Assembly: GCA_008632985.1 (NCBI GenBank)
Contig: QPGO01000313.1
Span: 1 to 61,169 of the forward strand
Source: Psammoneis japonica
Lineage: Eukaryota
Length of the DNA: 61,169 nucleotides
Reading direction: 5' to 3'
The translations under genes were made by a program, and so were the position numbers. Below, piece after piece: positions 18,251 to 58,330 of this stretch. Every line of letters starts with the position of its first letter. Position 1 is the stretch's first letter. A model generated the notes under the pieces. The model was not told where the DNA came from. It made no database searches and saw nothing but the letters and a program-made list of their open reading frames with translations.

Positions 18251-18454
18251 ATGTATACAACAGAGGCCACTCCAGTCTATGTCTGCAAGAAATTTCTGTG
18301 GTTCATGGCCTCACGCCCACATTTTTCTGTGCCGTTCAGTTGCACATCAGACGAAGAACCCCACTTTCTCTGTCCTTCTACATTACTTGACTTCTAGTCG
18401 TATTAACATGAAGTACATGATATATCCAATGCTCTGTATTATAAACTAAACGAA

Positions 18455-20672: not shown

Positions 20673-20829
20673 GCCTCCTGCCCTCTATTGTAGCTAGCTA
20701 CCGGTACAATTAATCGAGGTTCCATTTCCCATTTCACATGAACATTGCTACGCAGTCAATGTTGTGGGAGCGGTGGCGGTTGGCGCGGATCACTCCCAAC
20801 TGGGAGGTCTGTACAGTAAGTGCATTGGC

Positions 20830-26182: not shown

Positions 26183-26529
26183 CTTGTTAATACACACAGT
26201 CCAGTTATTATGATGCCTGTGTTGGGATGTCAAGTCCCAGCGACACAACATCATGCGTTCGCGGCGCTGACGGGTGACGGGCCATCACAGTTCGTATCCA
26301 ACGGTCGATTCACGTAGAACCAACGCAAGGTTTGTACCAGTGACGTGACCTGCGATGCTTGCGCAAGACGCACGCAAGTGACGCAGACACTGCGGTACGG
26401 GAAACGCAAGACAAAGTCAGCCAGACACACCACACACCACATTCTATCATACAGTCAGCATGACAAGCGAACATTCAACCCAAAGGCAGACAAGCAATGG
26501 CACAAAATGCCAGTCGTCGATGTTCATAC

Positions 26530-28925: not shown

Positions 28926-29028
28926 TTCAGCATCTTAAACTATAAATAAAGACATCAGATACAAACGTAAATGCTATAGTATGATACTTTCTGGATTCCG
29001 ACAAAGCAGTACAATCGGAGTCTAACGT

Positions 29029-36338: not shown

Positions 36339-36780
36339 GGGCCATGTTCAAGGCACTCACAATATCTTCTTTTTTCGCCTCTGCGCTTGTTTGAAATGCA
36401 ACGCAACGATGACGGCGTTGCGACGTGCTTCTTTCAGCGCGGGACACAATGGCATTTCTTGCAGTGCTGTACTGGAAATGTCGTAGAATCTACATACTTT
36501 GATTTGTACGTACGAATCAGTACAAAGTTCTGTACTTCGTACGGCTACGTAGCTTTGGTACCACAGCTACAGAATTTCGAAAGTCTGAGTTCGCACCATT
36601 CGCACCATGAGGAGTCAGCACTCAGCTAGCACCGTCATGCCTCATTCGGCGGTTTCCACTTGCAATCTTGCGCCATTAAAAGGAAAGTGAGGTTGGAATA
36701 AGCTAGCACCCCTATTCCTATTTCTATTCCAGTTTCCTTTTCCTGTTTCTGTTTCGTTTTTTACTGTGTGGAAAGTGGAA

Positions 36781-38145
36781 ATGAAGAGCGGTGTCCTCTG
36801 CATAAACACATTTGCGATGGCTGTGGCTGCTGTGGTACTACTACGGTGTGCACTGGCTCGTCCAGCTGCAGCATTTTCCTCAGGATCTCTTCGCTGGAGA
36901 CCAACCAGACCGATGGCGGAAAACTTTTACTCGACAGTTTTGAAAGATGCGTCTGCCTCCGAAGGCGCCGAAGCGAAAACTACGCCTACAAAATCTGCTT
37001 CGCCAAGCAACGGAAATGATCCGCTTGCTGACTACCGTAATGAGAATAATGTTCGTGACCAAGTTTTTTCGGCCATGTCTAAAGACGGAGGAGTCAAGGT
37101 CACGGTAGCCACTCTACGGAATGTTGTAAACGACATGATGATGCAGCACACAATGACGGACATTCCGGCCGATGCGTTGGGACGTACTGTGATTTGCAGC
37201 TTACTCATGTCCAACGGAATCCAGGATGAACAAACTGTGCAGATAACTATGAACGGTATGTTGTTTAAGATCACTTTCAAACCGCAGTTTTCGAAACCCT
37301 CGTCACTAACGTTTGTCGGTATTTCCATTTTCTGGCGTTGTTTCGAAACATTGTGCAGGAGACGGCCCCCTTCGTGGAATCGTCGCTATTGCAAATGGCA
37401 TTGGCGAGGTTCGAGGCTATGTCGGTTCTCCCTCTCTAGGTCAAATGGATCTTGTGGATGCAGTAGGAAAAGGATCAGTTCAAATCGTTAAAAATCACCC
37501 CCAGTGGCCTAATCCTTACAACGGAATCACAGCCATTCGCCACGGAGATATTGATCGGGATATTGGTGAGTCGACATTCTCTACTCTCTTTCCAGTGACT
37601 TGACAAGTAGGTCTTTTAATTGTTCTTTCCTTTTCCTTTTAAATCAAGGCATCTACCTAGCTGAATCAGAGCAGCGTTCTTGTGCACTAGCCGCTGCAAC
37701 ATCCATCACTGGAATTTTGTGCAAGGCCGCTGGAGGGTACCTCGTAGAGCAACTCCCTGGATGCGATGCGGAGACTATAGAAAAGGTGGAAAGCAACATT
37801 GGCAAATTAGTGGAAAGAGATGGAGGAGACAAATTACCCACAAACTTGCTTCTTCACGGCGTCACACCACTAGAGATTGCAGAAACTGTGCTGGATGGAC
37901 TGGACATGCAGCCCTTACAACAGATGGAGCCCAAAGCCGTTTGTCACTGCTCCGACGAGCGACTTATGCGTGCCCTTCGGCTCTTGTCTCGAAAGGAAGT
38001 CGATGACATACTAGCGAAGGAAGAAAAGATAGAAGCACGATGCCAGTTTTGTGGAAAGGTATACAGGATGGGACCGGAGGAGGTGGCAACCCGATTTGCT
38101 AATGCCAAGGGGGATCCATCAAAGGACAGTGACATGAATTTATAA
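36781..38145 (+). CDS. HSP33: Hsp33 redox-regulated chaperone, probably organelle-targeted (introns 37256-37338, 37566-37648)
   Basis: ALGRTVICSLLM, GDGPLRGIVA..GEVRGYV, YLAESEQ, AGGYLVEQLPG, zinc-binding CHC..CQFC; presequence with AAA-FSS. Confidence 0.9.
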
Positions 38146-38229
38146 CGTTAACTAATACCGTAGCTCCTAAGATGAAGGTGGCAAACGTATATATGATCTA
38201 TCTTCTCGGTGTTGCTTGAAAGTCACAGT

Positions 38230-38847
38230 CTAATCACTGTCACTAGAACTTGAGTCGTGACTCTTTCGGCGTTTCTTCTTTCGCTTTTTGTCTTTACGTC
38301 GTCGTCGTTTCCGTCGCCTCTCGCGACGCGACGAATCGTCTGAGGAAGATTCATCTCCTTCTTCGCTTGAGGAAGAATGCCGACGACTGCGTTTGCGCTT
38401 CCGATCTTTTCTTTTTCTATGTTTTTTTCGAGACTTGTCTTTCGAGCTACTCTTGCCGCTTTTTTTCGCTTCTTCTTCGACTTCTACAAACTCCTCTTCG
38501 CTGCTACTTGAATCGTGATCTAAGAGTTCGTATGGTGTTGTTTCGTTTGCTTGTGCTTTTCCAAGGTCGGTCCTTCGCTTTTTGCCAGGTTTCAGGCCTA
38601 AATACATCTTCTTTGCGAAGTCATCCCGTGATCCGTCACGGCCAGCAACATTTTGATGACGCGCCAGCTCCAATAAACCGCGAGCTTTGGCTTCGTTATC
38701 CGCATTTGCCGCTGCTTCAATCTTTTCAGCCTCAGAGGCATGGGGATCATGACCAATTGCCTTCCAGATCGAACTAGTTTTCAAAGTGGAGCTCGTTGTC
38801 ATCCGGTTGTTATGCGGCAAACGCACTCGTCCTGCGGTTGCTGGCAT
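38230..38847 (-). CDS. CAX-interacting protein 4 (CXIP4)-like Arg/Ser/Lys-rich protein
   Basis: N-terminus MPATAGRVRLPHNNR...IWKAIGHDPHA closely resembles plant CXIP4 as recalled from memory; low-complexity basic and Ser-rich tail. Confidence 0.75.
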   Translation of the reverse strand: MPATAGRVRLPHNNRMTTSSTLKTSSIWKAIGHDPHASEAEKIEAAANADNEAKARGLLELARHQNVAGRDGSRDDFAKKMYLGLKPGKKRRTDLGKAQANETTPYELLDHDSSSSEEEFVEVEEEAKKSGKSSSKDKSRKKHRKRKDRKRKRSRRHSSSSEEGDESSSDDSSRRERRRKRRRRKDKKRKKKRRKSHDSSSSDSD

Positions 38848-39392
38848 GATTGCTGAAAAAGAGGGTTGGAATGACGAGACTCGTCTATCTACTGTATGTT
38901 TGCTGCTGCTGGCTGCTGCTGCGGCCTCTTTCTGCCGCGGGAGGAAACGGGAATGAAAGGACCTCTACAGACAAAAGAAGGTTACTGTGGAAGCAAATCT
39001 GTCGACGGAAGATGAAGGCGGGGCTTTCAAGTGTGGATCTTATGCAGCGCTCAGCCTATAAAATATGGTTGGTGCTCTTGGGAAAGGAATTGACAACCGG
39101 ACACGCCATCGCTGGCAACTGGCAATGGGTAATGGCCGCAAAATTCGCTGCGCATGCATCGAACCCAAACGTGCGCGACCAACTCTACTAGGGCCTAGTC
39201 TCGAGGGAGGATTAGGAATGGCGCTACGAGAGCCAATCAGAATTCAGCATTTGGGATTTCTACTTATAGGGGGCCCTCGGAAAGTCGAGGACTTTCCGAC
39301 TAATTAATTAACATTTTTTCGGAAAATCTGACGCAATCATTTATAGACGAGGAGGCTGAGACAACTCTCCAAAATCAGACACAAGAATCAAA

Positions 39393-42300
39393 ATGATGCG
39401 GAGACCGAAATCATCTTCTTTTCGCGCCACGGAAAAACACAACAACACAGACTTCTGTCGCGATGAGAAAAATTCTCTCACAAAAAAACCCACGAGAGAG
39501 AAAAGTACAATCTCTACTGGTGCTTCGATGATGACCGACGTTGAAGAAGAATCAGCTCCACTAAAAGTGGCTACACAGCAGCAGCTGCATCCTTTCTTTA
39601 TCAACATGGGCATTCAATCCCAGAAGCGCAAAGGCTCCATTAAAACGAGCAAAAGTCAAGCGCAGACACGTAAGAAGCGCACGCAACAGAGCGATTTAAG
39701 TGGGCGCAAGGTGCCAAGAGTAGACGACGGAACAAAGAAATGCAAGAGGTGTGAGAATGGGCCTACATACCATCATGGTCACGATCCCACGTGCAAGTTT
39801 TCGAAACGATACATGCAAATCAATGTCACCGCGGCTACGAAAGATGCAGAGCGACGGGAAAAAGAGCTCCATGAAAAGAACAATACGATCCCAGCCGCCC
39901 CACAGAAAGGAGTTTCTACCATGGAAGACCATTTTGAAATTAAAGAATCAAACAGTCGAGCTCCATTGCCTCCTCCCGGTGATTCAAACTTTTGCAAGCC
40001 CGTGAATCTGGGAGCGTCCAGTTCTACCGTCGCAAGCAACCCGAATCTTTTTGATGCCGCAAGGAATACAAAATTCTCGGTTGAGACGTTGAAAAAGAGA
40101 TTCGAGCACGAGTGAAAAAGTATGAGAACTCGGAGGAGAAGACAAAGTGCCCGGCTGCAGTGAGTGCTCTTATCAGTTATCTGTTGGATTCTGTCAAGCC
40201 CAGATTTGATCAGGGCAGCAACACGTATCCTGTTGCTACAGCAAAAAGCACTAAGCTCAAAGAGATTCTGGAGGTCAAGGATGGTACCTTTCCGCCTGGT
40301 ACAATATCGTTTCAAGTTCCCAAGGATGACTGCACTTCACCGCCTGATTATTACTACCACCAGCTGCAGGGTATGATAATATACATCGTTTGTTGGGAGC
40401 TGAATTGTCCTAACATCTACATTTCCTGTATTGACGGAGAGTGTGACGGGGAGATGATTCATGACCGTATGGACTTTACTCGATACGGTGGGGCGACGCC
40501 AATATATTGCATCAGCGGTAAGACTCATGTGGCAGTGTCAATGTGGTATGAGTGCAACAAATGCAAGACGCGATGCAAGGGCAACGACGGTCGACTGCTA
40601 CACAAGTTACCAAAAAGCCTTCAATCATCGTATCCAACTGAGCCAAAGTATGCCAGCGCAACCAACAAATGGCACCTTACAAGGGAAACCACAAGGCTAT
40701 TTGAATCCTTTCTTGTCACGTACGCAAACGGCGATAAGTTTTCTCACACGCTACACCAGATGCGAGCTGCCTATTTCGAGGATCTCCAGAAAGAGTATTA
40801 TCAACGAGCCAACGATGAATCAGGTGACTGGATATCTTTCTACGAGTGGATTGGCAGCTACAGTCCATCAGGTTCTGCGATTCTTGATCTTTATGATGAA
40901 TCTGGCGCATCGGAATTGACAGCTCTTGATACGTCATCATACTCCAGATGTACAAGATTGATCCAGATGGTGGGAGCATCAATGAGCGTGGCTTCTGACC
41001 ACACTTTTCAAATTCTCAAGAATTATACAAAGAAAGGTGGTGGAGCGGCGGCAGGACTATTTACTATGTGCAACGAAAAGGGACAGGTTGGAGTTGCTTG
41101 TCTGACACCGACGTTGGAAGCAAAAGATTTTGCTCACGCAGCCGAGCAGTTCGCGAGGCGAAAGAACGTGCGTCCAAAAATCCATTACAGCGACACTTGG
41201 CCGAATAAGTCATCGTTATGGAAGGTGTTATTTGGAGGTTACATAGTATGCCGTTTGGGTCTCTTTCACTGGATGCACCGTATTGTACAGACACTTCGAA
41301 AAGACCACGTCGACTATCATCAAGCAGTTCGGGACCTTCGAGCTACAGTTTCATACACCGAGTGGTCGGACCGCCAAGCAGTAATACAAGCCCTCAAGGA
41401 TGGAACTCTCAATGGCAAAAAGCACACGGATGCAGAAATAGATGAGATCATCCATTCTTCCAGGTGGAAGCACTACTCAGAATACATGCGCATTTGGAGG
41501 CATCCGCTGGAAAAGAGAATCAGCTTGCTTGACGATTGGCACGCCCGATATAAGTGTACGGCTTCTGATGGATCGCGACCCGCTGGGGGACGTCTTGATC
41601 CAAACAGTGGTTTGACACTCTTTACAAGTGATACAAAGGATGCCGTGGCAAATGGAAGAGAAACATCCAAGGGATTGGACGTTCCAGTGCCAAAGTCAGA
41701 GCAGTACTGGCCAGTGGCTCCATCGCTCCGTTCAAGAGCGAAGCTGGTGAAGTGGCGGACATTACTCGGGCCGGAGTCAAAGTTGGAAAAGGCTCATGAT
41801 TCGCTGGCTCATTATGGAACTGTGGGATGCGAGATTCATTGATGGATTTGATCACTCTGGAAGGTTTGGTTCTCTACAACGCTACAATTGAAGAAAAGGA
41901 ACGCGTTGAACGAATGAATCCAGAGACTCGAGCAAAGATTCCATACGATTTTCGGGGTGTGGTTGCTCATCGGAACGTGCTCAATCTAATCGAAATCACA
42001 AGCTAGCAACAAAGAAGGGGAAGAAAGCGCCCTATCCAGATGTAAGGGAACTCGAGGCGGACACCGGCGAGCGTTTTCTGTCCAAGTACCTGCGGGAGCA
42101 GAATGCTAGAAATGAAACAATTACTCCACACCCGGAGACGGATCGATGTATGTGCAATATCTGTGGGACAAAGCCAGTGACAAATCCATACAAGCGAACA
42201 ACAAGATCAGTTGTTGGAAACGGCAACGATGGAGAAACTACAGCAGTGGCAAGCGTTCGACCGGCTAGTGGTTTTGTGGAAATTGTGGCGGCTCCTCAGG

Positions 42301-42653
42301 TGGGGGTTGAATCTATGTGTGTGAATGACACACCATTACTTAACGCGGCTCACGTTCGAGTCGAGGAGCAGTTCAACATGTTGCAAGCCGTGAGAAGCGC
42401 CCTGTCACAACAAGTTGCCATTGCATCGAGCATGAGCGCATCCCTCCCATCTGTTCCATATCAAGTGCAACCGGCTCTTTCAAATCTTAATGATCTGATA
42501 CGGGATCAGAGGAAGCAAGACATTGATCCATACTGTTGTCCTGTCTTCCTACAATACAAGCTGCAGCAAAGCTACAGTGTGACGGGGTGCCGACCAAGAG
42601 GTCGACCAGCGCATTCTAAGGATTGCCCAAAGAGACAGCAGTCAAGGAGGTAG
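39393..42653 (+). mobile_element. Frameshifted DDE-type transposase-like gene (DUF6729-like, Mutator-related superfamily uncertain)
   Basis: Collinear ORFs 39393..40115 (CKRC..HHGHDPTC), 40112..41842 (YECNKC, VASDHTF, MCNEKGQV, HYSDTWP, RLGLFHWMHRI, SKLEKAH) and a continuation with DTGERFLSKYL and CMCNIC; frame breaks near 40112, 41830 and 42000. Confidence 0.65.
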
Positions 42654-43862
42654 ATGTTATCATTACTAGGCATACTTTATGTATTACTACTTTTGTTGAC
42701 ATTCTCGTGAGATAGCTACTACTCGTAGAAGCGATCTAGCCTAGAGACGCACAGTAGTGTTTTCGAAACAGAGCTGAGTTTCCATGAGTTACGAATTCAC
42801 TATTTTATTTCTTATCTACCACACTTCTATAACTATTGGTTGTTGTGTCCTCCACATACTTCATCACAATACCACACTCAAATGCCACCTTTCAAGGGCA
42901 GGTGAACCCTATCGCAACGGAGATTCGGGTCTGCGGCGGTTGAAGGCACTCCCGTCCTTGGAAGCACCAGTCAACGCCTCACCGGGGGCAACCCCTTGGC
43001 TCTCGTTGGCCGTCTCAATGTTCAGAGGTGGGGCCACATGAACATTATTGCAGAAAAAAAATTACCGAGGCGCTGCTGCAGTCAGCAACCTCGGCAGTAG
43101 CCCGTGTTATTTAAAGACGAGGGCAACCTCGTCTGCCGCTTATACACGGACTTTTCCAAAAGTGGTAGATTGTAGATTACCAGCCAAAACAAACCACACC
43201 CACAACCAACATGTGACATCCATTCCATCATATCCCGGTCAACAGCGCTTGTGGTACCGCCGCACTCAGCAATTCCAATGAACCCTGAAAAGCCACCACT
43301 CCAACAACTTCTAAAGCCTCGTCAACGAAGGGTGAACACTCGGCTGAAGCCAAAAGGCAACAATACAAAGCATCAGCATGAGAGACGCCATGAATGATCA
43401 ATGCTTAAAGGAGGCTCTTCAATCTGTCAAGAACGAACAGAAATTGCAACGCAAGAGCGGTGAGAGACGAGTTCAAAAAATGGAAAAAGTACCAAGCATT
43501 TCTTATCCATTTTTCACGTTTTTCATACATCTCTTTTCGTATATTCATTCATCAGAGAGAGTTTTAATGCGTGCTTTGTTGTCACAACAGTATCACAAGT
43601 GACGGCGACAATTTCGACTACCGGCTCTTGCAGCTCTCATGGTCGATTTTTTGTGTGGTGTCGGAGGGAAACTCCTGAATTGCGTAGATTTCTACGTAAA
43701 ATTCATACTAGAGATACTTCAACACTACAATGTCTCGATCTGTGTCACCACACCAAATNTACTTCAACATGGGAGCACCCGGAGATCTGACACATCGGGT
43801 GGTGAAACGGGAGAAAGAATTGACGATGGCTCTTCAAACCACTTCTGCCTTTAGATCAAGCT

Positions 43863-43962
43863 CGCTCCCTCGCAACCCCTTCCTCTCTCCTTCCTTTCTC
43901 TCCTCCTCCTCCTTCTTTCTCCTCTCCCCTCCCCCCCTCTCTTGGAGTCACTAACCCCCCCA
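43863..43962 (+). repeat. Polypyrimidine (C/T) low-complexity tract
   Basis: CCCCTTCCTCTCTCCTTCCTTTCTCTCCTCCTCCTCCTTCTTTCTCCTCTCCCCTCCCCCCCTCTC. Confidence 0.85.
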
Positions 43963-44010
43963 AAATCGTAGCCAGTAGCTAGCCCCACTAGAGCCCTACC
44001 CGGCTAACTC

Positions 44011-44214
44011 ATAATACGAGCATTGAAGAGAGTCAAAAAGGATTTTTGAATACAAATGGACGCTTCTTGAGCAAGGAGGAATTGAAAACAGCGAGGACGG
44101 GTCGTGGCGAATGAAATGCATGGGACACCGGATGCCATTGGATCTCGCAATGATTGCGTTGGAGCAGGGGCCTCGCCTTTGCAAGCACTGGATGGACTCA
44201 TGGCTGACGATGAC
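44011..44214 (+). pseudogene. Fragment of a PPIL4-like cyclophilin gene, inverted copy of 54922-55110
   Basis: Aligns to the reverse complement of 54922-55110 (GCTTCTTGAGCAAGGAGGAATTG, GGGTCGTGGCGA, CCATTGGATCTC, GCCTTTGCAAGCACTGGATGGACTCATGG). Confidence 0.85.
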
Positions 44215-47200
44215 CCACTCTCTCAGTGTGGCAGGAACACAAGGGTCTGTCTCTCCACAGTAATCCCAGCTGCTGTCAGCAGTGACGCATCGCAGCAGGA
44301 AATGGGTGCTCCATCCAGCATGCTGGAATGTCGGAGAGAGCAAACACAGTGCTTTGTGGGCTGACAAGCAGCAGGAGTGCTGGTGTGCTGGGGCAAGAAA
44401 TGTGCCATGGAATTTCTGGAGCCAGAGCAGCACACTGACTTTTGCTGCAGCTTCTGCCTGTCAAGCATCCTCTGCTGTGGCCAGCACTGACAATTCTCTG
44501 CACAACCAACTTCCAGATCACAGCTGCAGCTGTTGAGCCTTGCCATCATGCTGTCACCTCAAGGCCCAGCAGAAAGTTGCACTCTCAAGCTCAGCTGCTG
44601 CTTTGGGTTTTTTGGTGCATGTGTGTGCTGCACTTCAAGTGGTTTGGTTGGGAGCTTGGGTGCCTTTTTGTGGCCTTGTTGCAATTCAAGGTGCCTGCTG
44701 CAGAGCTCTGTCTTTGGCTGCTCTTCTTTGATTTCTGTGTGGACCCAAAGCAACTCAGCAGCCTCTTTGTGTGCACCGTGTTTGCACTCTGTGCTTCCTG
44801 CAGCTTTGTTGCCAACAGCAATTGTGCACCCCAGCCAAGCCCCTCAGCAATCCACAGTCATTGTTCCAACGAACGCTCCTTCATGGATGATGACAACCAT
44901 GCTGCAGCAGCAGTTCATGCTGCAGCCAATCAAAATTCTCTGAGCATCAAAAGCAAATGTGAGATGTGTGAGTGCAGCATTTGGTTTGATGTCCATGGTT
45001 GCAAAAAGCCCACTGTGACATTGCAAGCAGTGTGGTGGTGGTGGTGCTCACCAATCTTTTTTGCCACAACTGAAGCTCACATGATCCAAGCAAAGAGTGT
45101 GCCATGACACACAACAGCAAAAGAAAGAGTGCACCCAAGGTGGGAGTGCAGCCAAGTGGGCTGCTTCTTGTTGTCTTGTTGTCCATTGCACCAAACACAT
45201 CACAATCTTTCCATGCAAAAGAGTGGACAGAAGCAGCCAGTGGCTTTTTCCAGCTGGTGCATTGAGTGTTGTCTTGCCATTTTCCAATGTCCCCACCAAA
45301 CAGTTCCTTGTTTTCAAGATTTGTGGCTCTTACAACCTCTGATGCCTTTTTTCTGCTTTGTCATCTGCAAGAGTTGTTGATGACAGCACAAAAGAGATCA
45401 ATGTTGTCACCCACACAAGCACCGCTGAGCTCTTGCTGAAAAGATTTGAAAATGGCAAACTGTCTGCTGTGGCTGCAAGCTCACCAAACAGAAACCTGGT
45501 GCTGTGATTTTTGCCAAATTTTGTCACACAGTGTTGCATCTGGTGTTCTTTTCAATGGAGCTGCAAGATCCAGCAGTGTCTCAAAAATGGAGCATGTCTC
45601 AGGCCACTCCTTGTGCATGTTTTGTGCCTCTCAAGGCATGGCAATGTGCACATCATTGAGGAATGACTCTTAGAGATTTGGAGGTGTTTGTTGTGCATGT
45701 GGCCCCAGGTGTCAACTCCTCTGCAGTCTGCTGGGCTGGTTGGCCTGACATCCCAGCAGTTGATCACAGGCACTTTGACTCCACACAGGACTCAATTGCA
45801 GACTGTTTGCTTGGTCACATTTCTGATGTTCCAGAAGATGCCTGCCCAAACCCACAATTCCCTGATGACCCTTGAGTTGTTGGCACAACAATGACAATCT
45901 TCGAGAGGCTGCTGAGACTGTCACATCCACCAGCATTGAGAGCTTTTGGAGCAAGCACTGACACTCTTAGAGATTTCCTTGATTTCAGAGCAGGGTGCAG
46001 ATGCCCAATGACAGAAAGCCTGTCAATCTGCTTGACCCACTCAAAGGGGTTGCAGTTGAGGCATCAGCTTGGTGTTTTCTGAATTTTTGATTTTGCATGT
46101 CTTCTTTGCTTCACCCTCTGGACAATCATCAGCCCACCCTTGTTCTGGCACACACATGTGCTCAACTGGAGGCAGGTGCAGAGAGTCTCAGTCAGCAGCT
46201 TCTTCATGTTAGAACAAAACTCAGGAAAACTGCACAACGTGGTCTCACAGATCCAAGATGCAGGAAACATGTGTTCCAGAAAACTGCAGGCATTGAGGAT
46301 TGGAATGCTGCAACACCACAACTTCCCACAGTTCAGATGCAGTCACAACAGGTGCTGTGACAAATTTTTTCAAGACTCAGTCATTGGCAGCTCATGGCTC
46401 AAGACAGAGCAGTGTAAAAAAGTGCAGCAAGTCTCCCAAACTGGGTGCACCAAAGGAAGATGTGTGCCACCAAAGTCAATTTTTTGTTGAGAAGGTGGTC
46501 CTTTTGCTGATGCTGGGCACGGATGCCCCCTCCTCACATTGCATGGTGACTCCTGACCTCCACTCTTTCAACACACTGGTGTGTCTCCTCCTCCCAACTT
46601 TGGGTCTTTTCTCAATTCAGCAGGGCTGCACATTTGTGCAGTGTGAAACATGATGAGGCTGCTGCCAACCAATGGAGCCATGTCTTGTCTGGGCATGCCA
46701 ACGCACTCTCCCCCCCAACAACTGCACTGTGTGGGACATGACACTTGCTGCCAAGCAAGAAATTCAAACAGATGTCACACACATCTTGGAAATTTGTCTA
46801 GATGTTGCTCAATGTGTTGCTCTTTGCACCAGCTTGCCAGTTTGCTGTCAAAGGTCTGCTTTGTTGTGTGGCAGGGCTGCCTTTTTTCACCAGCTCCAGC
46901 ACTCCATCCACAATGAGCACAGATGCCAGAGACATGGGCACAATGGGCACAGCCACCAGAGACATGGAGGTGTGCAACACTGTCTTCTTGCAACTTGGTG
47001 TCAGAATGTTTTGTCAGGGTCTCAAACTGCAGACCTGCTGGGCTCACAGCCCTCAGACTTCTGACACAAGTGCCACAGAAGACAGGCCGCTCATCCCACA
47101 CTGCTGCCAGGTTTGCATCTGTTGATCTGTGACTCCAGGAGGCAAAACTGTGGCACATCCTCAACAGGATTGTTTGCTTGGACAACTTGAGAACAAGTTG

Positions 47201-50200
47201 TTCCTGACAACCTGCATGGAGCTTTTGCTGTGTGGACTTGTCAAAGATGTTGTCTGGCTTCACTTCTGAACCCATTGGAGAGGCAACTTTGGCAGGCAAC
47301 TCATTTGATGCTGACTTCTCTGAGAGTGCGGCATGCACAAATCTGACTTTGCATTGGTGCACCAGCTCAAGCTCTCACATGTGGTCCTGCTCTCTTGCTG
47401 ATGCAGAAAACAGACTTTGCCACTCACATCTGCAGCAAATGTCACCCAGGTTGTGCATTTGGCAACATCTGTTGGGGCCCTTCTGGATGCACAAAATTGT
47501 GTGGTTGTGAACCTTTTTGGTGCCATGTGCCACATGCCTGCAGATCATGAAGCTTGTTTCATCAACTTTAACACCAGCACTCTCTTTGAACATTTTTGTC
47601 ATTTTCCCTGGGGTGGCATTGCAAGACCTGCAGGCCAAGTCTTCATGACAGCCTGATGCTTTTCGGGAGGCTGTTGGCCTGCATCAGAGGGCCATGGCAT
47701 GTGCCACAGTGTGGACTCAACAACAGCTTGATTTGGAAGAACCCACCATCTGTGATCTTGCCAAGCAATTGAGCCAGAGCTCATTGCAGTTTTCCTTGCC
47801 AATGGTGGCTCTGAAAAATGCTGACCCCACCAACAGCCAGAGTGGTCCACACAAGGCTGGCAAGTCTGCAGCACATGGTCTGCACTCTCTCATGTGGGCT
47901 GTTCATGATTCAAAACCAAGTGGGCTTTGTTTCCCAGGTTCAAGTGGTGTGTGCAACAGAAACTCATGGGCCAATGTGTGCTGCTGCCATCAACTCAGGA
48001 AAGTTGTCACAGCACTGCATGGTCTTGAAAGAAGCCCACCATGTTGACAGCCAACCCAGAGCTGGAAGGTGCAAAAACATCCAAAAAGAAATCTCACATC
48101 TTGTGCAATCTTTGCCATGTAAAAAGACAAAACAAACTCTGGCTCAGGGCTTGCCAAGATCACATCAGCAGCAGCTTTCAGGTGCCAGCAGACACTGTGG
48201 TCAACCCCAAGGAGTGGCTGCAGGGACCAAGTGACAACAACAAAACTCAAACCAATGTTTCAAGTGCTGGTCTCACATCTCAAGACATTGACCCACACTC
48301 ACAGTGCACCAGCTGGTGCAGCTGGATTGTTCACAGGACACTCTGTCTCTGCTTCATTTCAAGTCAAATGGAAAATTAACTGCATGCTCTGTGTGCACAC
48401 AACCCAGCTGACCATGTTGGAAGAATGAAAAAGCCCAAAAACCACACCCAGCAGGAGATGCTAAAAACTAAATGTCAAAAAAGCAACACATCTCTGTCCT
48501 CTTGCTGCAGCAGGGGATGTGAGAAGTGTGAGCACAGACAGCCAGTTTGAAAGCAACATGGAAATCTGCGTGGAAACAGCAGGGAACAATTGCTCTTCAT
48601 GCAATGCTTCAAATGTCAGTGGGAGTTGGTTGTTGCCAACAAACTGTGATGAACATGACTGCAGCCACTTTGTGTTGCCAAAGGGGTGCAAGCAATGCAC
48701 CTGCAAAGAATGGCAGAGAAATGAAGCTGGGGGTGAAGAAACTGATGACAACAACAATCATCAATCTGTGGTGGCACCAAAGCATTTTGCAGAGTTCAAT
48801 GCAAGGAATGTGGCAGTGCCAATCAGAGCAGGAGTGTAAAAAGGCACACACTGCCATGATGGAGCCATGCCTCCCAAGCACCAGGAAAGCAGCATGTCTC
48901 CTTTGATGCCACTGGCACAACTGCTGCCTGCAGCTCCACATCACCAATGGAGAACAGCACAGAGCTGACCCCACAAAGGACATTTCTTTGGGTGCTTGTG
49001 AGTTGTGGGTGACTGAAGATGCTTCAGAAGAAGCTGCAGAAGCTTTGCAGTGCCACAGTCAATGCCTCCTCTGTGTTTCTGCACTCAAGCTGCAAAAAGA
49101 AGGAAGCTCAGGCTCAAGGGATTAACTGTGTGTGCCAGAAGATCACAGGAGAAGATCAACTCTTTTGACTGTGGAGCCACTCACTTTGAACAATGAATGT
49201 AAAAATGATGCTTTCAAACAGAGCATTTCCTTGGTTGCAACAGTGAACATGGTGGTGAATGCACAGAACACATCAAAAATCACCTCTGCTGGTCTCCAAC
49301 ATGCAAACTCACATGCAAGCCACCCTTGGTTCTTTGCCTCAGCAATGATGCACCTGTGCAAATCATTTGTGAAGCTGATTTTTTCCATTGGCCCCTTCAT
49401 GGAGACACAATCAGAGAAACCAACAAGAGACTGTTTGAACACAAAAATGAAAAAAATTCAATGGGGGGACACAATCCTCTGAACCAAACAATGAATCTGC
49501 TTGCCCCGTTTTTCCAAAGAGGGGGCACTGTCATGGCAGATTTGATGCTGAAGCAACTGCTTTGCTGGCCCAACACTTGCACCAGCACACACCACACTGC
49601 CGCTGCAGTCTCAAATCTCCTGACCCCCAAAGACTTGTGCTCAAGATGTTGATCTGGCCAGAAGCCATGCTGACTTCCATCAAATCTGGCTCACATCTTG
49701 GCCACCCCCAGGATGTCAACATCTCTTGGCTTTGTGCAACCCCTGGGGTTGTTGTTGGAGACCAGCCACTTGGCTTCTTCCATCAAGCTGTGCTGGGCTG
49801 CATTGAAGTGAGGACATCACTGCAGTTGTCAGAGGGACACTGGCAACAATGTGGTCTTTGAATGGATGAGAAACAACATCCATTGACTGAGGGAGCAGCC
49901 ACATGCATCAGACAGACTCTCAAATCATCTCTGCAGCAGCAAGTGTCAGGCATTGGCACAACACACAAAGAGCACAGTTGCTCACACAATCCTGCTGTCT
50001 GAGAGGGTGATGCTTTCCTCCACGCAAACACTCCTCTGGCATTTCTTGAAAATCTCATGTTGGAAATCAGTGCATCTTCAGAGACAACTCTCATTGACAG
50101 GAGGAATGTGCCAGCTACAACATTGGCTGTGAGCAGGAGCTTGGGAGGTGGAGACATGAGGGTGACAAAATTCTTGGCCACTCAAGTGCCACATCATGAA

Positions 50201-52250
50201 GCATGTGCTTTGCATGATGCCCCTTGGCCTCACAGAAGAGCACAAAGCCCACTTCAGCAAAACACCCAAGACCAAGGCAGCAGAAACTCCCTTTTGTGGC
50301 ATGGAGCTGTGTCTCTGCAGTTCATTGCTCAACATCTTTGATCCTCTAAAGTGTGCAGAGCACATTCTGAAACCCCAGGTTGCTTGGTCTGTCAACAAAA
50401 GTTCAACAGCGGCTCATGTGCTGTTGACAACACACCCATTCAGATCAACATCTTTTGTGCATTTCCCCAACCCTTGTCTTGTCTTGTCTTGACCATGCCT
50501 TTTCTTTGTTGAAGGACAGTTGGTTGTTGTGGTGCAATGTTTTGCACATGATGGGCACCACAAACTTGAGCGACCAAGTGCTGCTCATGTCATGTGATGA
50601 AGTGGGCTTTCACCGATCATGGCAAGCCTCACCCAAAACCACTGCATGACAAAGTGGACACAGAAATTCATTCTGCTTGCCAGGCAATGCACTGCAACAG
50701 TCAACGCCAGCTGTCAGCATGACAATGCACTCTTTGCAAAATGCAAGGGTTGGTGCCAGGTTCCCAAAACTTGCAGCACAAGGAGAGCTCAAAGACAAGA
50801 CACCACCCATGGAGAAGCACCACAGGCATGTGTTGTTGTGCTTGGCATTTGCCTTTCCTGCTGCAAGTGCTCCCCAACACACTTTTGAACAACAAGAGCT
50901 GTCTTGAAAATCCAGTGGGAAAAACAGTGGTGGGAACACTGCCAAGCATGATCTGCCACACTGACCACATTGCCAGGTGGCAGCAGATGCTCAGGTTTTA
51001 CAATTTCTTTGGCACTGCTGAGGCTTGGGTCAACCTCAACATTTGATTGTGACAGCAGCAGCCTCTGGACACAACTGCAGCTTGTGTGATGGGAGTCATT
51101 TTCTTGTGTGATTTGAGCACATGTCTTTGCATCATTCCAAACCTTGTCAGCTCAGCTCACTGCATTGGCTCCTGAGCCAAATCAAGCATCATTTGGCTTG
51201 AATTGCCCAGGTGTTTTTTCCTTGCAGAAGGACAACAACTTGTGCTCCATGGGCCCGGTGCTTGCCTCAGGTCTCTGTTTGTGCAACCCAAAGGTGTCAA
51301 CACTGTCAGACACTGCTGCATGAGTGAACAGCTTGATGTGCATGGATCCCCACCAGCTTTGACTAGCAGTGCCTGATGCAAAATTGATTTTTTGATCAAC
51401 AGTGGAAGAAGCTGTCAACAAATGTGTTGAAGCAATGGAGAACAACCTGCGAAATGTTTGTGAGTGGCCTCAAGACAAGAGAGTCATCCATGGGCAGCTG
51501 GCTTGCCCCTGCGTCTGGCTGAAATGTGGGTGAAACCTTTTCAGCCCATTCTCCTCATCTTTGCAGAGAACAGTTTCTGAGTGTGTGTGTGCCCCAAACA
51601 GCTTTGAAACATTCCCGATGATCAGCACCAAAGTGGAGCTGCAAACAGAGCTGGGCACAGCTCCCTCTTCTTTGGACTGCTTTGTGGCAGTTGATCCATC
51701 CTTGACCCCAGAAGACAAGTGGAACACCCCCCCACTCTGGCTGCACATGATGACATTCCAGTGCCTCATTTGACTCTTGCAGATTTTGAGCAAAGACTGC
51801 ACAAAACCTCCCACAGCTTGGGAGTTGCCACTGTTTGTTCTTGACCACCATTTGATTTTGTGCACTTTGCAGTGGTTGGCAGCAACAGACCCATCTTTGG
51901 TGAACTGCTGATCTCTCCTCTCCTGTGTGTGGCAGAGGCTCATGTGCTGCAGAGCACTGTCTCATTGAAAGCCCCTTTTTTGCTTGACTGATGTGGAGCT
52001 CCACTGCATTGCACCTGAAAGGCAGGCAACTTGCCATGTTGTGTGCTGACGGCATTCTCCAACTGGGTCCACACTTCTTGATTGATTGAGAGCCACAAAC
52101 AGAATGAGACAAAAAGCCTGGCTGAGGCACGTTGCTTGGCTGGCACATTCCCTCCCAGCTGTGAGGTGTGGTCAACTGAGTCTGCCATGCTTTGTGTCAG
52201 TGGCTTTCCAACATGATAAAGTCCAAGGCCAAGTTGGAGCTCCTGTGCAC
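44060..52250. other. TpA/CpG-depleted hypermutated tract 4 (about 8 kb, degenerate; ancestral content not identified)
   Basis: About 20 TA by eye in 44230-52240, none in 44263-45330; CpG rare; dense overlapping Tyr-free ORFs. Confidence 0.92.
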
Positions 52251-53168
52251 ATAGTGCGTCCTCAACTTTTCCAATTTTCCCTTTCGTACCTGTTGTTTCT
52301 TTTGCTGGAAGATCGTCACGCTCGAATATCACCGCGTTTCTGACTGAGTCGGAACAATGAAAGCAATCGCCTTGAACAATCCTAAGGTTTATTGATCTCA
52401 GCGAGCATGAGAGCGGAACTCTTGCCAAACGATACTCACTAATACCATTCCAGCACCATCTCTTGACTTCTACGCTTGAAAGTGTAGATAGCAAACCATT
52501 TTCTAGGATGAACCCTGATGACTGAAACCGCACAGTCAAAGTTGTGAGGTCATTCAGCACTGGTGATACATGTAGAAGTGTGTATCTCTCTTTTTCTTCA
52601 GCGTCATTCGATTCTGGTAGCCAGCCCACAACATCTCCCTTTGTTCTTCCTTGCTGGAGTGCTATTCCTGACGCCTGCACTCTTTAAGTACGTGTCTTCG
52701 CCTATCGAGTCAGCGATAGTACAAGGAACCGTCACTTACATCCGCTTGAAGGCTGCCTCTGAGGACACCCATCGGCATGATTCACTCTTTGGGGTGGAGG
52801 TAGACTATTTTATACTGGAGCCATGTCTTGTGACTGCTCTAATCTGAGATTTGGATTGAAGTGCAACATCGTCATATTTCTCTACTAAATATGGATAATA
52901 AGGTAGTGAGTAGTCCAAAGAATCAAGACCAAGCAGAGAAGCCAGGGGCGTCAATGCGGACAGACAATTGAGGCATGAAGTATGAACTCACGCGAAAGGC
53001 TCGAAACGGATACTTGTTGATAATGCACGAAAGCGCCTTGGCCTTGGCAAAATGAAGCAGTCCAACTGGACTGCGTCCCTCTCTTTGATACGAGCGATGA
53101 ACCAGAAACGTCCAGCACGTTTAACGTGACAGGATTGAAAGCATTTCGCTTGCAGCAGGAAATTACAA

Positions 53169-54220
53169 TGTTGGCAGTCGAGTCGGCCTGACTGAAACAA
53201 AAAACGGGCGCCTGCTGAAAGTCCGTGTAGCTGGGAGCCTTGGATGATGTTATCGTCAAGGAGGTAATGGGACCTGTTGTCGTTGAAAGGTTTCCATGTA
53301 GCTCGACAAAGTGAGACGAGAGTGACAATTCGGTAGTGAGCGTACAGTGAGTTGCAAGAAGCCCAAGCGCCTTAGCAGGAGCAGTTAGGAAACTCGTATT
53401 TCTCATTCTTTTGTCAACGTATGGTACCAGATGACCGATTCCTTCCGTGTGGATGCAGTGGAATGTTCTCAGCCTTGTTGAATGCGAGCAGGTTTGGAGG
53501 ATGCCGGAGAAGCAAGTTGGAGCGACTTCTCTGCGTAGAGGAATAGGCAGTTTGAAGCAAAAGGAAGTATAGATACCGACCGTATGTCCAAAGATAGCGT
53601 GAGAGAGAATGCTTAGCGAAGAGCGGCCCTTGATGCCTGATCTGAATCGCCTCTGGCCCTCTGGCAGCGCCATGCGCCATGGGTATCGTGACACGCGCCA
53701 CTGAGGTTTCATTCTTGTATGTTGAGAGGTGTTGGCAGTCGAGTCGGCCTGCTATCATAAAACATGCACGTACTGAAAGTCCATGTAGCTGGGAGCCTTC
53801 GATGATGTTATTGGCGAGGAGTTAGGGGACTTGTCGTCGTTGAAAGGTTTTCCAAGTAGCTCGACAAGGTGAGACGAGAATGACGATTCGGTAGTGAGCG
53901 TAAAGTGAGTTGCAAGAAACCCAAGCGCCGCAGCAGGAGCACTTATGAAACTCGTATTTCTCATTCTTTTGTCAACGTATGGTACCAAATGACTGATTCC
54001 TTCAGTGTGGATGCAGTAGAATGTTCTCAGCGTACCTTGTTGAATGCGAGCTGGTTAAGAGGATAAGTTGCAGCGACTTCTCTGCGTAGAGGAATGGACA
54101 GTTTGAAGCGAAAGGAAGCAAAGACTTAGCGAAAAGCGGCTGTTGGTGCCTCATCTGAATCGCCTCTGACCCTCTGGCAGCGCCATGGGTATTGTGGCAT
54201 GCGCCAGTGCTGTTTATTGT
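53169..54220. repeat. Diverged tandem duplication, period about 561 bp (53169-53715 / 53730-54220), of a decayed minus-strand coding fragment
   Basis: TGTTGGCAGTCGAGTCGGCCTG at 53169 and 53730; both copies encode VPYVDKRMRNTSF..AP..ALG.LATH.TLTTE on the minus strand. Confidence 0.9.
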
Positions 54221-54253
54221 TGCATCATGCGTATGTTGTGTTTTCATGATGCA

Positions 54254-55314
54254 TTAGAGACGCGCCGGTTTCATGTCTCGAATAATTTCAGCCGTGACCT
54301 CAGGATCAAAGCGTGAAAAGATCAGTTCCGAGTCCTCATCGTCCGTCACTGGATTCAATTTGCAAACAAACAAAATATTCTTGGGAGCCTTGATAACTAC
54401 CTACTCTACGGTATAAAAACGAAACACAGTGCAGCGGAGAGAAAAAGAAGCAGAACCACAGAACCACACAAGTGAATCATACTCACCGGCAGATGGCAAG
54501 TCCCCCAACACTTCCAAAACAACAGCACGCGATATGTCTTCTCGTTAATGATTCTCTTCTTCTCGTTGCCTGGCTTTTTCGTGAGTTTCGTCTTCCTACT
54601 TCTCTCCGTCCTCTTCATTTGCGTGAATGCGGTGCTCCACGACTTCTTCTGGAGGACGATAATGTATTCAGGAGGCGCCGTCACTGTATCATCTTCCAAA
54701 AGAACTCCACGACGTTTAAGCAAGTCTTTCCATTCCGGGAGGATCATCAAATGCATAATGAATCACAACGATGCACAATACGTTGTATATCCGCAAAAGG
54801 TCGTCCGTCGGCATCGCAATATACCGCTTGAATCTTGTCTAGCACACCGTCTTCATCCTCCGCCACGGTTCCCAACGACAAGAATGTTGTTGCTGTTGTT
54901 CGGCATTGTTGGGCGACGCCACCATGAGTCCATCCAGTGCTTGCAAAGGCCCCTGTTCCAACGTAACCATAACCTGAGATCCAATGGTATCAGGTATCCC
55001 ATTCATTTCAGTCGCCACGACCCTTCCTCGCTGTTGCAATTCCTCCTTGCTCAAGAAGCATCCTTTTGTTTTCAAAAAACGATTTTGACTCTCTTCGATA
55101 CTCGTATTGTTTGTTGTAGCGTCGATCAGTCCATATCATAGATACCGCCGCCGCCGGCAAAATGTTGTAAATCAGCGTGTTGGTGTATTACTTCTAGGTA
55201 AGATTAGTGGCGAGCGTTGGCTAATTTCAAAACATTACGAGCGAGCGCTGGATTCTCCTCGACATCCAATTCAATGACGACATCGCCAATTGAAGTTTCC
55301 AACAACAACGACAT
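54254..55314 (-). pseudogene. PPIL4: PPIL4/CYP59-like cyclophilin-RRM pseudogene, truncated inside the RRM, intron 54486-54406 retained
   Basis: Read across frameshifts: [107 protein letters not shown]; many stops and indels. Confidence 0.88.
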
Positions 55315-55439
55315 GCTTTTGTGGCAATGCTGTGCCAGCAGTTTCGAGTTGTTTTGTTGTTGATGTTGCGCGGTGTTCATTGTTCGTTTTCAGTGTTCAT
55401 TCAATCATGGAGCTGCTGCATGCACGCGCGCGGCTCGCG

Positions 55440-58330
55440 CGGCCCGTCTCGTTGGTGCTCCGCTGCGCCTCTGGGTGGATTCCTCTAAGTTGAGATGGAC
55501 TGGAATGGCTTTGCCAGCGGATGCGCAAGCCTCATTCCCAAACCCAAGCTGGAACGGCAGGGCCAGAGGGCAGGAGAGGTGGGAGCGTTGAACTGTCCAC
55601 TTGCGGCTCTTGCTCTTGCTGGTTGCTCTTCGGAAGAATGAGAAGAGGGGGTGATGAAGAGCAAGTGGCCGTTGCTCCAGTCTTGCAAACACGTGTTCAA
55701 ATTTTTAAACGACTGTGGGACAAGTGACCCAGTGGCCAGGAATGGGTCATTTCATCTCGTTGAACCTCCCAAGGTTGGCAGCTTGTGCTGCCCATCTCAT
55801 CAGTTCTCCTGCGCCTCTGCAGAGTGAGTGAGCGCAGGTGGGCTCTGAGTTGATGGACTGGAATGGCTTTGCTGGCGGATGCGCAAGCCTTGTTCCCAAA
55901 CCCAAGCTGGAACAGCAGGGCCTTCCAGTGCCACCACAGTGCAATGCACTTGAAGGCATGCACCACTGGGTGGGTGGGTGAGGCTGGGGGGCTGGGGTGA
56001 TCCAGCCCTGTGGATGTGGGACATTCATGGGGACGTCGGCGTTGGGATGGAGGACGAAGTCGCCTCCGGCCAGCATGTTGCAAGCAAAACTGTGCAAAAT
56101 TGGTTTGGCTTGCAGATGCAAGCAGTGCAACATTTTGTTGGATTGCCAATGGCCCAAGAGCCGAATGAGGTCTGTGTCGACCTTGGTGCAGAGGCAGGAG
56201 TGCCATGGCACCCGCTGCGTGAAGGCACTGAGCAGCGACATCTCGGGTGTTAAAGCCGGGATTTGCCAGACCACATGTGATGATGGCTGTGCGCAGAGTG
56301 CTTGTGATGTCAGCTGGTGACACCCAGTGCCGTGCATCATTGTGAAAATGGATGGCAAGGGGGTGTCAGGGAGCACGTTGTGAGATCAAAGTTGTCGGAC
56401 GTGCCGGACGAGTGCTTTGGCAGGGCACAAATTGGGGTGTCCCGAGAGGCTGAGTCCCAAAACTTCTCCACAGATGCCATTGTGCAGTGAAAGCAAGAGT
56501 GGCAAAGGTGGCAGTGTAAAGCTGAGCATTGGGGTCTTGGAGGGTGTCTAGATGGGCTCCTCTCCAGATGCCAGGCAGACGTTGGCAAGGCGGAACATGG
56601 TGTTGAAGGGGGTCACGGTGCATTCACTGGGATGCAGGAGGCAAAAGAAGGCAATGGCTGTCACATCAGCATCCACTTGAGTGCCTGCTGGGTCAGTGCT
56701 GTGGGGGTGGCAGCATGCATGATCCAGGTGAGGACAGCGATGGGGACCAGTTTGATGCGGTCTGGTGGCGGATCCTCTTTCTTGCAGTGATGGACTTGCC
56801 TGGCAAGTTGGAAATCCATGCCACCTCAGGGTGTGTGCCGCAGATCCGCAGACCCCATGGCAACAAACGTTTGGCCAACCAACCACACGGCATCCTCAGT
56901 GGTTCGTCCTCTAGTGGGATTGCCGTGCAGGGCAAGGATGCCAGCTTGGTGATGGTGGAGGAAGACTTGCAGGAAGACAATGGGGTCATTGATGTCTTGG
57001 AGTGATGGGTCAATGGCCAAAGAGGTGCAAAACTTGCACCATTTGTCCCAACGGGCATTGGTGATGGAGGCTCTGGAATCAGCAACACCATGGGCGACGC
57101 CGTGTTGAGCAGCATTGAGGTCACGAATGAACTCAGCCCAGATGGTGGCATCCAGAGGTGCCAGGAGAGTTTCTGCGGGTAAAAACGATTAAAGTGACAA
57201 AGGAAATCTCAGTTGGCAAGGGACTGAAGGTGTGAGGCATCATCATCAGCAGAGTTGAGGTGTCCAGGCCAACAATCATGCTGTCCAAGGTGGTGATGGC
57301 AACATTGGTGGAAGGCTTGATGTTGAAGAAGCTTGGAAGCTGGTTTGATGGTGGTGGAGGAGCCTTTGCATTGCCAGCGCATGGTGCCTGAGTTGTCAGT
57401 GCGCGAGAGGCCAGTGCACTCACAAATGTCAAAACAGTCCAGTGGGTGGTGGTGCAGGATTGGATGACGCTCCCAGCGAGTTCTAAATCAGTGTTGGCAA
57501 TGGGGCCACGTGGGTTGGTGCAGGTGGCAAGCTGGGAGGTCACACATTTGGGGAAAGGCATGCGCCAGACAACCGGTCCTGCATCGCACTGAGTGTGCTG
57601 TCAGTTGTTGCTAAAGCACAGGGTGGTGGCTCGCTGGACAGTGGCAGCAGTTGGGAGGAGCATGTCTCCAGCGCTGTGGCCGGCAACATCATGGCAGCCA
57701 GTGATGGTGGGTTGCAACAGAACCAGCTCCTGAGTGCGAATGGGTTGGGACTCCAGGGTTGGTTTGAGGTCACGAAAATTGTTTGGAGTGGAGTGGGAAT
57801 TGGATGTGATGCAGACTCTGGAGTCCAGAGCAGTGTGTTGGAGGTTCTCTTGAACCTCTGAGTGGAGACCGCGTGAACCCGGGATGGCAAGGCCGAGCAA
57901 GCACAGTTCACCTGAGAGCTTGTGGCAGTCTGTGGCGGTGGTGCATTTGCAGGTGCAAGGAAAATGCTGGTGCAGTGTGGTGCAAAGCCGTTCATGCCCA
58001 CAGGGCATGAGGTGGATGGTCATGGAGTTGGCATTGTTGATCCACCCCAGGACTTCTTTCTGCGTGGACCAAGTGGCATCACCCTGGCAAAGCTTCTTGA
58101 CAGAAACTGGCTCCTTGTGGGTGATGGGGTCTTGGGAGTCCTTGAGGGGCCAAAAGATGTCATCCAGTGTGTGTGGCATGATGTGACAGATGTGACGGCA
58201 TGCCTGTCAAGAGCCTTGGGAGGCACCAATGAAGTTGTTGACACAGATCTTGACACATCAGAGGCATTGAACAATGTGAGCCATCAAATTAAATGGTGGG
58301 CATGTGTGGCTCTGACAAGGGCACCGGATC
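55440..58330 (-). mobile_element. Degenerate DIRS/Ngaro-type tyrosine-recombinase retrotransposon (RT C-part, RNase H, YR, 3' repeats)
   Basis: RT CVNNFIG (58245-58225, from YVDDFIG), KEPVSVKKL..GDATWSTQKEVLGW; RNase H NTDLELAG; YR DPIVFLQVF..RTTEDAV..VGQTF, AFFCLLHPSECT, LHAAGAMALL, LIRLLGHWQSNKMLHCLHLQA. Confidence 0.9.
55494..55922. repeat. 71-bp direct repeat pair (55494-55564 / 55852-55922) downstream of the YR gene, probable split terminal repeats
   Basis: GATGGACTGGAATGGCTTTGC..GCGGATGCGCAAGCCT..TTCCCAAACCCAAGCTGGAAC.GCAGGGCC twice; weaker similarity extends about 50 bp upstream. Confidence 0.88.

Follow-up and report, generated by a model that had tools for sequence, protein, structure and literature searches.

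We describe a stretch of 61,169 nucleotides of DNA from the eukaryote Psammoneis japonica (assembly GCA_008632985.1, contig QPGO01000313.1, positions 1 to 61,169 of the forward strand; the whole stretch is called the window here) that contains five tracts in which the dinucleotides TA and CG are depleted and TG and CA are in excess. One of these tracts includes the relic of a retroelement pol gene whose codons bear the same changes. We lean, with modest confidence, toward the view that the tracts are silenced mobile DNA that has been subjected to fast, region-limited, and strand-symmetric hypermutation, by which CG and TA have been turned into TG or CA.

TA and CG depletion in the window

The signature was located by a 1-kb scan of the window and was then counted exactly. 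Between positions 44060 and 52250 there are only 20 TA (observed/expected ratio [o/e] 0.04) and 38 CG (0.08), together with 962 TG (1.94) and 975 CA (1.85). In 15 kb of background DNA (28001-43000), the o/e values are 0.60 for TA, 0.96 for CG, 1.11 for TG, and 1.10 for CA. Were these rates to apply to 44060-52250, it would contain 318 TA and 473 CG (Poisson p of 3e-107 and 4e-149, respectively). A preliminary description of this DNA had reported about 20 TA in 8 kb, depletion of CpG with dominance of TG and CA, and no TA in 44263-45330, and the exact counts bear out all of these statements. The TA-free run spans 1070 bases and is flanked by TAs at 44261 and 45331, whereas the longest such run outside the tracts is 250 bases and the median gap between TAs is 17. 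The residual ratio of TA to TG plus CA in 44060-52250 is about 1% (20/1937). The depletion of TA and CG with an excess of TG and CA is thus confirmed as a real feature of the assembly sequence.

Pyrimidine-purine steps add up to nearly the same share of the DNA in 44060-52250 (24.4%) as in the background (23.4%), and this unchanged total is predicted if the changes are transitions within that class. The remaining twelve dinucleotides differ little between the two regions. For example, the o/e moves from 1.12 in the background to 1.18 in the tract for AA, and from 1.05 to 1.10 for AG. Furthermore, the G+C content stays at 0.47-0.51 across the 1-kb bins of the tract at 44161-52300.

The counts yield five tracts, the number given in the preliminary description, which total 17,640 of the 61,169 bases (29%) and are listed in Table 1. 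Loss of TA is uniform across them, at about 90% or more, and equals or exceeds the loss of CG in every tract. Loss of CG is more variable, with o/e values of 0.16-0.68 in the short tracts. Within the right-hand tract, TA depletion begins at about 55240, and CG is about half depleted up to 57.5 kb (o/e of about 0.4 at 56-57.5 kb) and nearly gone thereafter (about 0.05). At 56-58 kb, where CG o/e is 0.39-0.44 and TA o/e is 0.08, the loss of CG is far less complete than that of TA. No similarity between tracts was found in the window, at either the DNA or the protein level.

The short tracts fill intergenic spaces and stop about 10-150 bases from reading frames. For example, the tract at 20821-22340 includes a TA-free run of 1223 bases whose end lies 10 bases short of the reading frame for glutathione synthase. 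The blocks begin and end abruptly, over tens to a few hundred bases. However, the edges of TA and CG depletion do not coincide. Change-point estimates at 9 boundaries place them 40-720 bases apart, and the offsets run both ways, so the notion that TA loss always extends past CG loss was dropped. The differences in edges and in completeness suggest that two activities or marks were at work, coupled yet distinct. A pyrimidine-rich (C/T) low-complexity stretch (43840-43960) immediately precedes the long tract on its left side, and a single N stands at 43759 in otherwise clean sequence.

A pyrimidine precedes 77% of the TAs that survive in the tracts (120 strand counts) and 42% of those in the background (3406 strand counts), with both strands considered. 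The same bias is not seen for residual CGs in the tracts. This could mean that conversion works best at R-TA-Y sites or that the surviving TAs arose by new mutation.

Conversion recorded in repeats and in a pol relic

If the TG and CA excess arose by conversion, then ordinary DNA should acquire the composition of the tracts when the same change is imposed on it. We compared 3-mer and 4-mer spectra of the tracts with those of the ordinary DNA of the window. The correlation is only 0.56-0.60 for unconverted ordinary DNA and rises to 0.93-0.95 after 95% of its CG and TA are converted in silico, at random, to TG or CA.

Two pairs of repeats provide a direct comparison of matching sites. The first is a repeat of about 190 bases, whose copy at the left edge of the long tract (44013-44206) shares 85% identity, in inverted orientation, with a paralogue in DNA of ordinary composition (55108-54919). 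At four of the five TAs of the paralogue, the tract copy has CA or TG, and the fifth lies in a complex difference. For CG, there is one change to TG in each direction. The second is a direct repeat of 135-145 bases, with copy A at a tract edge and copy B within the tract. Seven sites of copy A (six CG and one TA) appear as TG or CA in copy B, TG in the case of the TA. At two more sites, one copy has CA where its partner has TG. Such doublets are rare under ordinary mutation and routine if an ancestral CG or TA resolves independently in each copy. Local counts of TG and CA are binomial, with a z variance of 0.9-1.1 in the two long tracts, which indicates that every site resolves independently. 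No long-range strand bias in the choice between TG and CA was found in the tracts.

Judged from its sequence, the tract at 55.7-61.2 kb holds at least one dead retroelement pol relic. A purine/pyrimidine periodicity, which these transitions cannot erase, appears at 57.0-58.5 kb, and codon-position composition points to the minus strand as the real strand of the pol frame, with gene-like composition at second positions. A protein search with the minus frame over the relic returned 12 matches, the best of which (P0054) has an E value of 1.7e-72 and 48% identity. These pol homologues are 553-865 residues long, and three of them (P0054-P0056) carry the reverse transcriptase family RVT_1 on record, weakly at 24-32 bits, with only P0055 above the Pfam cut-off of 29.6. 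By tblastn, residues 250-514 of P0054 align at 58254-57457 and residues 518-763 at 57442-56705 (frame -2, 50% identity). A single frameshift separates the two parts of this 1.55 kb relic. The N-terminal 250 residues of the P0054 type were not found by tblastn. A search of the pol-family profile against solved structures gave no matches, and the element may be of the long terminal repeat, the DIRS-like, or another class. A second and more decayed pol relic may lie at 60-61 kb, where minus frame 0 has only 3 stops (Table 1).

Homology to the retroelement proteins extends across the reverse transcriptase motif and the downstream RNase H-like region. However, the YxDD motif and the open frame are no longer intact. 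There are four in-frame stops in 535 codons (56705-58323), all of them TGA, and at two of these several homologues have Arg. The catalytic YxDD reads CVNN, and its Asp-to-Asn changes follow from CG to CA across the codon boundary.

To read this damage codon by codon, we used the 213 columns at which at least six of eight homologues agree and excluded all others. The relic matches 143 of these columns and differs at 70. Reversal of one CG or TA to TG or CA step restores 37 of the 70 differing columns, whereas three sham rules restore 12, 4, and 4. Arg is conserved in 25 columns. The relic has TGN or CAN in 16 of them (Cys TGY in 8, His CAC in 5, Gln CAA in 2, and Trp TGG in 1), still encodes Arg in 8, and encodes Gly in 1. 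The Arg conversions are divided between the sense strand (TGN, 9) and the antisense strand (CAN, 7). Tyr was scored in the six columns where at least four of eight homologues have it. Four of these read TGT, one CAC, and one TAC, and a change from TAY to TGY or CAY requires A:T to G:C mutation. The loss of catalytic codons and of Arg, Tyr, and Asp codons in the relic took just the form that the preliminary description had predicted.

These conversions explain nearly all visible damage to the relic apart from the one frameshift. With so little other damage, the element must have been near intact when it was hit, and with only TGA stops and a single frameshift, the process was fast relative to ordinary decay. 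The k-mer spectra, the paralogues, and the relic codons agree with the original proposal that CG and TA were turned into TG and CA on both strands, and they support the TG/CA excess as the product of this conversion through transitions on both strands.

On the plus strand, the DNA across from the pol relic likewise has a mostly open frame (56491-59097). A search with this plus frame matched 51 database proteins (best E value 3e-16), and none of the 13 that were scanned has a Pfam family. Because the frame is codon-aligned opposite the real pol frame, these matches look like antisense open reading frame (ORF) calls on related retroelements, and their presence in protein collections would then be spurious. 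A scan by codon usage, with converted host genes as the training set, likewise chose the antisense frame of the relic, which indicates that such a scan locates coding DNA and not its strand.

The long tract at 44161-52300 is less informative. No 3-base periodicity was found in it. No Pfam families were found in six frames of 44060-52251 or of 55200-61168, and Rfam gave no matches in 43800-61169 at E values up to 0.1. Stops are sparsest at 46-48 kb in minus frame 1 and plus frame 2, and at 50-52 kb in minus frame 1. These stop-poor frames and the repeat at the edge are the only leads to the nature of this tract. A search with its most open frame, on the minus strand at 45800-48598, gave no homologue among 8000 scored candidates. 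A transposon origin fits the tract with the pol relic, and no identifiable element was found in 44161-52300.

Table 1. Positions of the tracts and of the repeats and relics associated with them
Feature	Positions	Strand	Remarks
Long tract	44161-52300		8.1 kb; nearly TA- and CG-free; TG/CA doubled; no recognizable gene
Short tract	16841-18300		TA 11, CG 22; downstream of ClpX-like AAA gene
Short tract	20821-22340		TA 5, CG 20
Short tract	26461-27720		TA 6, CG 28; UDP-glucose dehydrogenase gene on one side, unnamed ORF on the other
Tract to window end	55721-61160 (61169)		Three sub-blocks
Repeat of ~190 bases, tract copy	44013-44206	+	Left edge of the 44161-52300 tract; TAs lost, CGs kept
Repeat of ~190 bases, unconverted paralogue	54919-55108	-	In DNA of ordinary composition
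Direct repeat, copy A	55430-55564	+	At tract edge; CGs kept
Direct repeat, copy B	55778-55922	+	Inside tract
pol relic, first part	57457-58323	-	Reverse transcriptase end and RNase H-like start; three in-frame TGA
pol relic, second part	56705-57442	-	Shifted one frame; one in-frame TGA
Possible second pol relic, more decayed	60633-61013	-	Weak tblastn matches (E value 0.03-0.09) to P0056, P0059, and P0060

Candidate mechanism and competing explanations

The data establish the direction, strand symmetry, sequence context, speed, and block structure of the change. The dinucleotides CG and TA are the two self-complementary pyrimidine-purine dinucleotides, and under the hypermutation that we favor each would resolve independently to TG or CA. 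Because the edges and the completeness of TA and CG loss differ, we infer two activities, which would be coupled on one chromatin domain. The CG half would be deamination of methylated cytosine, and this step is probably enzyme-driven, given the near-complete loss. The TA half would require a second activity on the T or A of TpA, and the identity of the enzyme behind it is a guess. Our preferred guess is a TET/JBP-type dioxygenase that would oxidize the thymine methyl group at TpA to 5-hydroxymethyl- or 5-formyluracil. The oxidized thymine would then template G, producing T-to-C changes on either strand, and the same type of enzyme would act on 5-methylcytosine at CpG. Polymerases are reported to insert both C and G opposite 5-formyluracil (PMC2673420). 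An adenine deaminase acting at TpA is an alternative for this half.

Several points weigh against this reading. We know of no natural hypermutation as clean as a 92-96% conversion of two dinucleotides. A literature search, which covered few subscription journals, found no description of joint conversion of TA and CG to TG and CA. In a term search of a paper on diatom retrotransposons, hypermut-, deaminat-, and dinucleotide were absent (PMC2806351). No tract of at least 500 bases was found in 74 related Not1 metagenome loci (693 kb), although these are mostly genic or transcript contigs and are therefore weak evidence. The mutual dissimilarity of the tracts within the window leaves triggering by repeats, as in repeat-induced point mutation (RIP), without support. 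No candidate enzyme was seen in the 61-kb window. In addition, the term mobile DNA is, for the tract at 44161-52300, extrapolated from the neighboring tract and from the repeat at its edge. The main rival is an artefact of base calling.

According to that explanation, the true DNA is normal, and dense modifications at TpA and CpG of silenced elements (for example, oxidized or glycosylated thymine and modified cytosine) were misread by the base caller for native long reads, with short-read polishing having failed because the elements are repeated. We consider this unlikely, but it is a rival that must be taken seriously. A systematic error would look much the same, since every change is a transition at one of two palindromic dinucleotides and conversion is nearly complete. 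The affected DNA is a mobile element, the usual target of base modification, and thymine hydroxylation in dinoflagellates and kinetoplastids prefers TpA. Reversal of the conversions would open the pol frame save for one frameshift, as if a live element had been misread. In the same vein, 5-hydroxymethyluridine is reported as a possible mark of transposable elements in dinoflagellates (PMC12584245).

Public sequencing runs bear on the artefact in both directions. The contigs of run X1, a run of 141 million letters, contain a 0.72 fraction of sampled 31-mers from a stretch that is 81% tract, from which it follows that at least about 66% of the tract words are contained in it. By our own estimate, recovery of about 66% of tract 31-mers from noisy long reads of 2019 would need a genome of about 5-13 Mb, which speaks against misreading by a long-read caller. 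However, run X1 comes with no stated platform and may be the source of the assembly itself, so it does not provide independent support. Moreover, the sequence is contained in runs of one study only (next to none in X2 and X3). No RNA run is among those listed as containing tract words.

Other features of the sequence argue more directly against misreading. The marks of unpolished long reads, namely shortened homopolymers and frequent indels, are absent from the tracts. Homopolymers of 5-7 bases are equally frequent in tracts and flanks, with no compression, and the 1.55 kb relic has its single frameshift. Genes in the window are unbroken, including a frame of 1738 codons, and the gaps in genes are introns and not frameshifts. 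A single-base N such as the one at 43759 is seen more typically in consensus sequences built from short reads or Sanger reads. The edges of TA and CG loss, which differ by up to 720 bases, would not arise from a short-read polishing front, and the choice between TG and CA shows no long-range strand bias. Indirect evidence therefore favors the view that the tract sequence was accurately read. Were the artefact nevertheless real, it would mean that silenced elements carry dense unusual modification of TpA and CpG and that about 29% of the window has been misread.

An improbable alternative is that editing took place before integration. Double-stranded RNA or RNA/cDNA intermediates would have been hyper-edited (A to I and C to U), and the edited copies would have been reverse-transcribed and inserted dead, each tract being one edited insertion. 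At least one tract is a retroelement, the damage to its relic consists almost solely of conversions, and the tract edges are sharp, all of which would fit. So would the known editing of retroelement DNA by APOBECs in vertebrates (PMC4866542). However, both strands are equally changed, unlike the outcome of editing on single-stranded cDNA, and the conversion of CG steps from an o/e of about 0.4 to 0.05 within one element. A single edited transcript does not explain this step or the edges that differ between TA and CG. AA is not depleted, and enzymes of the ADAR type also edit A after A. Finally, we know of no CpG-specific C-to-U editing of double-stranded RNA.

Slow decay toward equilibrium is, in our judgment, still harder to credit. 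Here, old, methylated, and nonrecombining DNA would have lost CG through 5-methylcytosine deamination and TA through a context-dependent mutation bias. The TA dinucleotide is already under-represented in the background (o/e 0.60), and 44161-52300 has no detectable coding signal, as expected of old DNA. However, the relic keeps 48-50% identity, with one frameshift and only TGA stops, while about 92% of its TA has been lost. By a rough estimate of our own, a TA residue of about 1% needs removal to be about 100 times faster than creation. Sharp block edges also speak against gradual decay.

Least credible of all is a native composition, with the tracts as a foreign or element-specific class of DNA that never had TA or CG; the tracts are indeed mutually unrelated in sequence and mostly without homologues, but this reading is already contradicted by the comparisons of paralogues, which have CG or TA at matching sites outside the tracts, and of relic codons, where homologous proteins have Arg, Tyr, and Asp in place of the predicted conversion products.

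Relation to known mutagenic systems and implications

The closest parallel to the proposed hypermutation is RIP of filamentous fungi, which is likewise region-limited, restricted to transitions, active on both strands, and aimed at mobile or duplicated DNA. The quick loss of coding capacity and the dinucleotide signature with sharp edges are also shared. The chemistry differs. RIP changes only C:G to T:A, whereas here TpA is erased and A:T to G:C changes make up half of the process. RIP prefers CpA and thus creates TpA (PMC2621366). The TG and CA produced in the tracts are therefore the substrate of RIP, and the G+C content stays at 0.47-0.51. Fungal RIP was rejected on the basis of the TpA o/e of 0.04, the TpG and CpA o/e of 1.85-1.94, and the change of Tyr TAY to TGY or CAY, in line with the preliminary description, which had argued that RIP makes TpA and cannot explain its loss. 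No gene for a RID-type methyltransferase was found among the large ORFs of the window.

Decay of 5-methylcytosine also turns CG into TG or CA on both strands and is confined to silenced elements. The conversion of Arg CGN to TGN (9) and CAN (7) and the six changes of CG to TG or CA between paralogues are consistent with this type of change. However, CG o/e falls to 0.02-0.08 here, compared to about 0.2 in vertebrate genomes, and the loss preceded other decay. The equally strong loss of TA is impossible by cytosine deamination, as had been pointed out before, and deamination as the sole cause was rejected since TA loss is at least as great as CG loss in every tract.

Hyper-editing by APOBEC/AID and ADAR enzymes resembles the process in producing clustered transitions that inactivate retroelement copies. 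APOBEC editing of cDNA is strand-asymmetric, whereas both strands are equal here, and it was rejected on the 9 sense and 7 antisense Arg conversions and the balanced TG and CA counts. ADAR has looser neighbor preferences, in contrast to the tracts, where only palindromic dinucleotides are changed and AA is untouched. The A-to-G pattern at WA that is expected of ADAR or Pol-eta was not seen, given the AA and AG values above. The WA-to-WG activity of Pol-eta, which the preliminary description had offered as a candidate, is likewise disfavored by the absence of AA depletion.

Thymine hydroxylation by the TET/JBP family marks T in silenced or repeated DNA, as base J in kinetoplastids and as 5-hydroxymethyluracil in dinoflagellates. 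Because 5-methylcytosine at CpG is also oxidized by this family, both dinucleotides could be within its reach. These systems are epigenetic marks. To our knowledge, no heritable conversion of TA to CA or TG has been attributed to such systems. Overall, the process is RIP-like in its action (fast, block-wise, and transition-only) and unlike RIP in its chemistry, and its TA to TG/CA half is without a known counterpart.

Other features of the window were recorded as well. The host genome is that of an intron-poor eukaryote. Between the two long tracts lies a tandem duplication of ordinary composition (53169-54225, about 558 bases, 79-91% identity), which overlaps a minus-strand ORF of 266 codons (52951-53751) without a Pfam family. 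Another tandem duplication (24019-24792, about 387 bases, 84.5% identity) fills the gap that separates the glutathione synthase frame from the convergent UDP-glucose dehydrogenase frame and extends into the end of each. At 4489-4820, a unit of about 111 bases occurs three times in tandem (88-89% identity). On the minus strand, a stop at 18914-18916 splits the ClpX-like AAA frame (18914-19867) from a downstream ORF (18455-18913) that carries the end of the AAA domain, and it could be part of an intron or a real stop. No Pfam family was found in the plus-strand ORF at 5407-8463 (1018 codons), and a search of 5.8 billion clustered proteins gave it a single relative, with 34% identity. The host organism appears to be poorly sampled.

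Tentatively, and with doubt slightly outweighing belief, we suggest that the tracts reflect a genome defence that edits both self-complementary pyrimidine-purine dinucleotides, in part through a natural activity that is targeted to TpA and changes A:T to G:C. That activity would be thymine oxidation or adenine deamination on double-stranded DNA, alongside deamination at CpG, and it would kill an intact retrotransposon in a short evolutionary time with G+C unchanged. The process removes Tyr and CGN Arg codons and erases TAA and TAG stops. It also hides converted elements from domain searches, with no Pfam families in 14 kb of tracts, and repeat annotation of such genomes would consequently miss them. 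The natural systems known to us that mutate mobile DNA in a targeted way (RIP, 5-methylcytosine decay, and APOBEC) all act in the C-to-T direction. If confirmed by independent reads, the tracts would represent a new kind of targeted mutation. An A:T to G:C drive at a defined dinucleotide would, if true, be a new class of genome defence and a possible natural source of chemistry for A-to-G or T-to-C editing of DNA.

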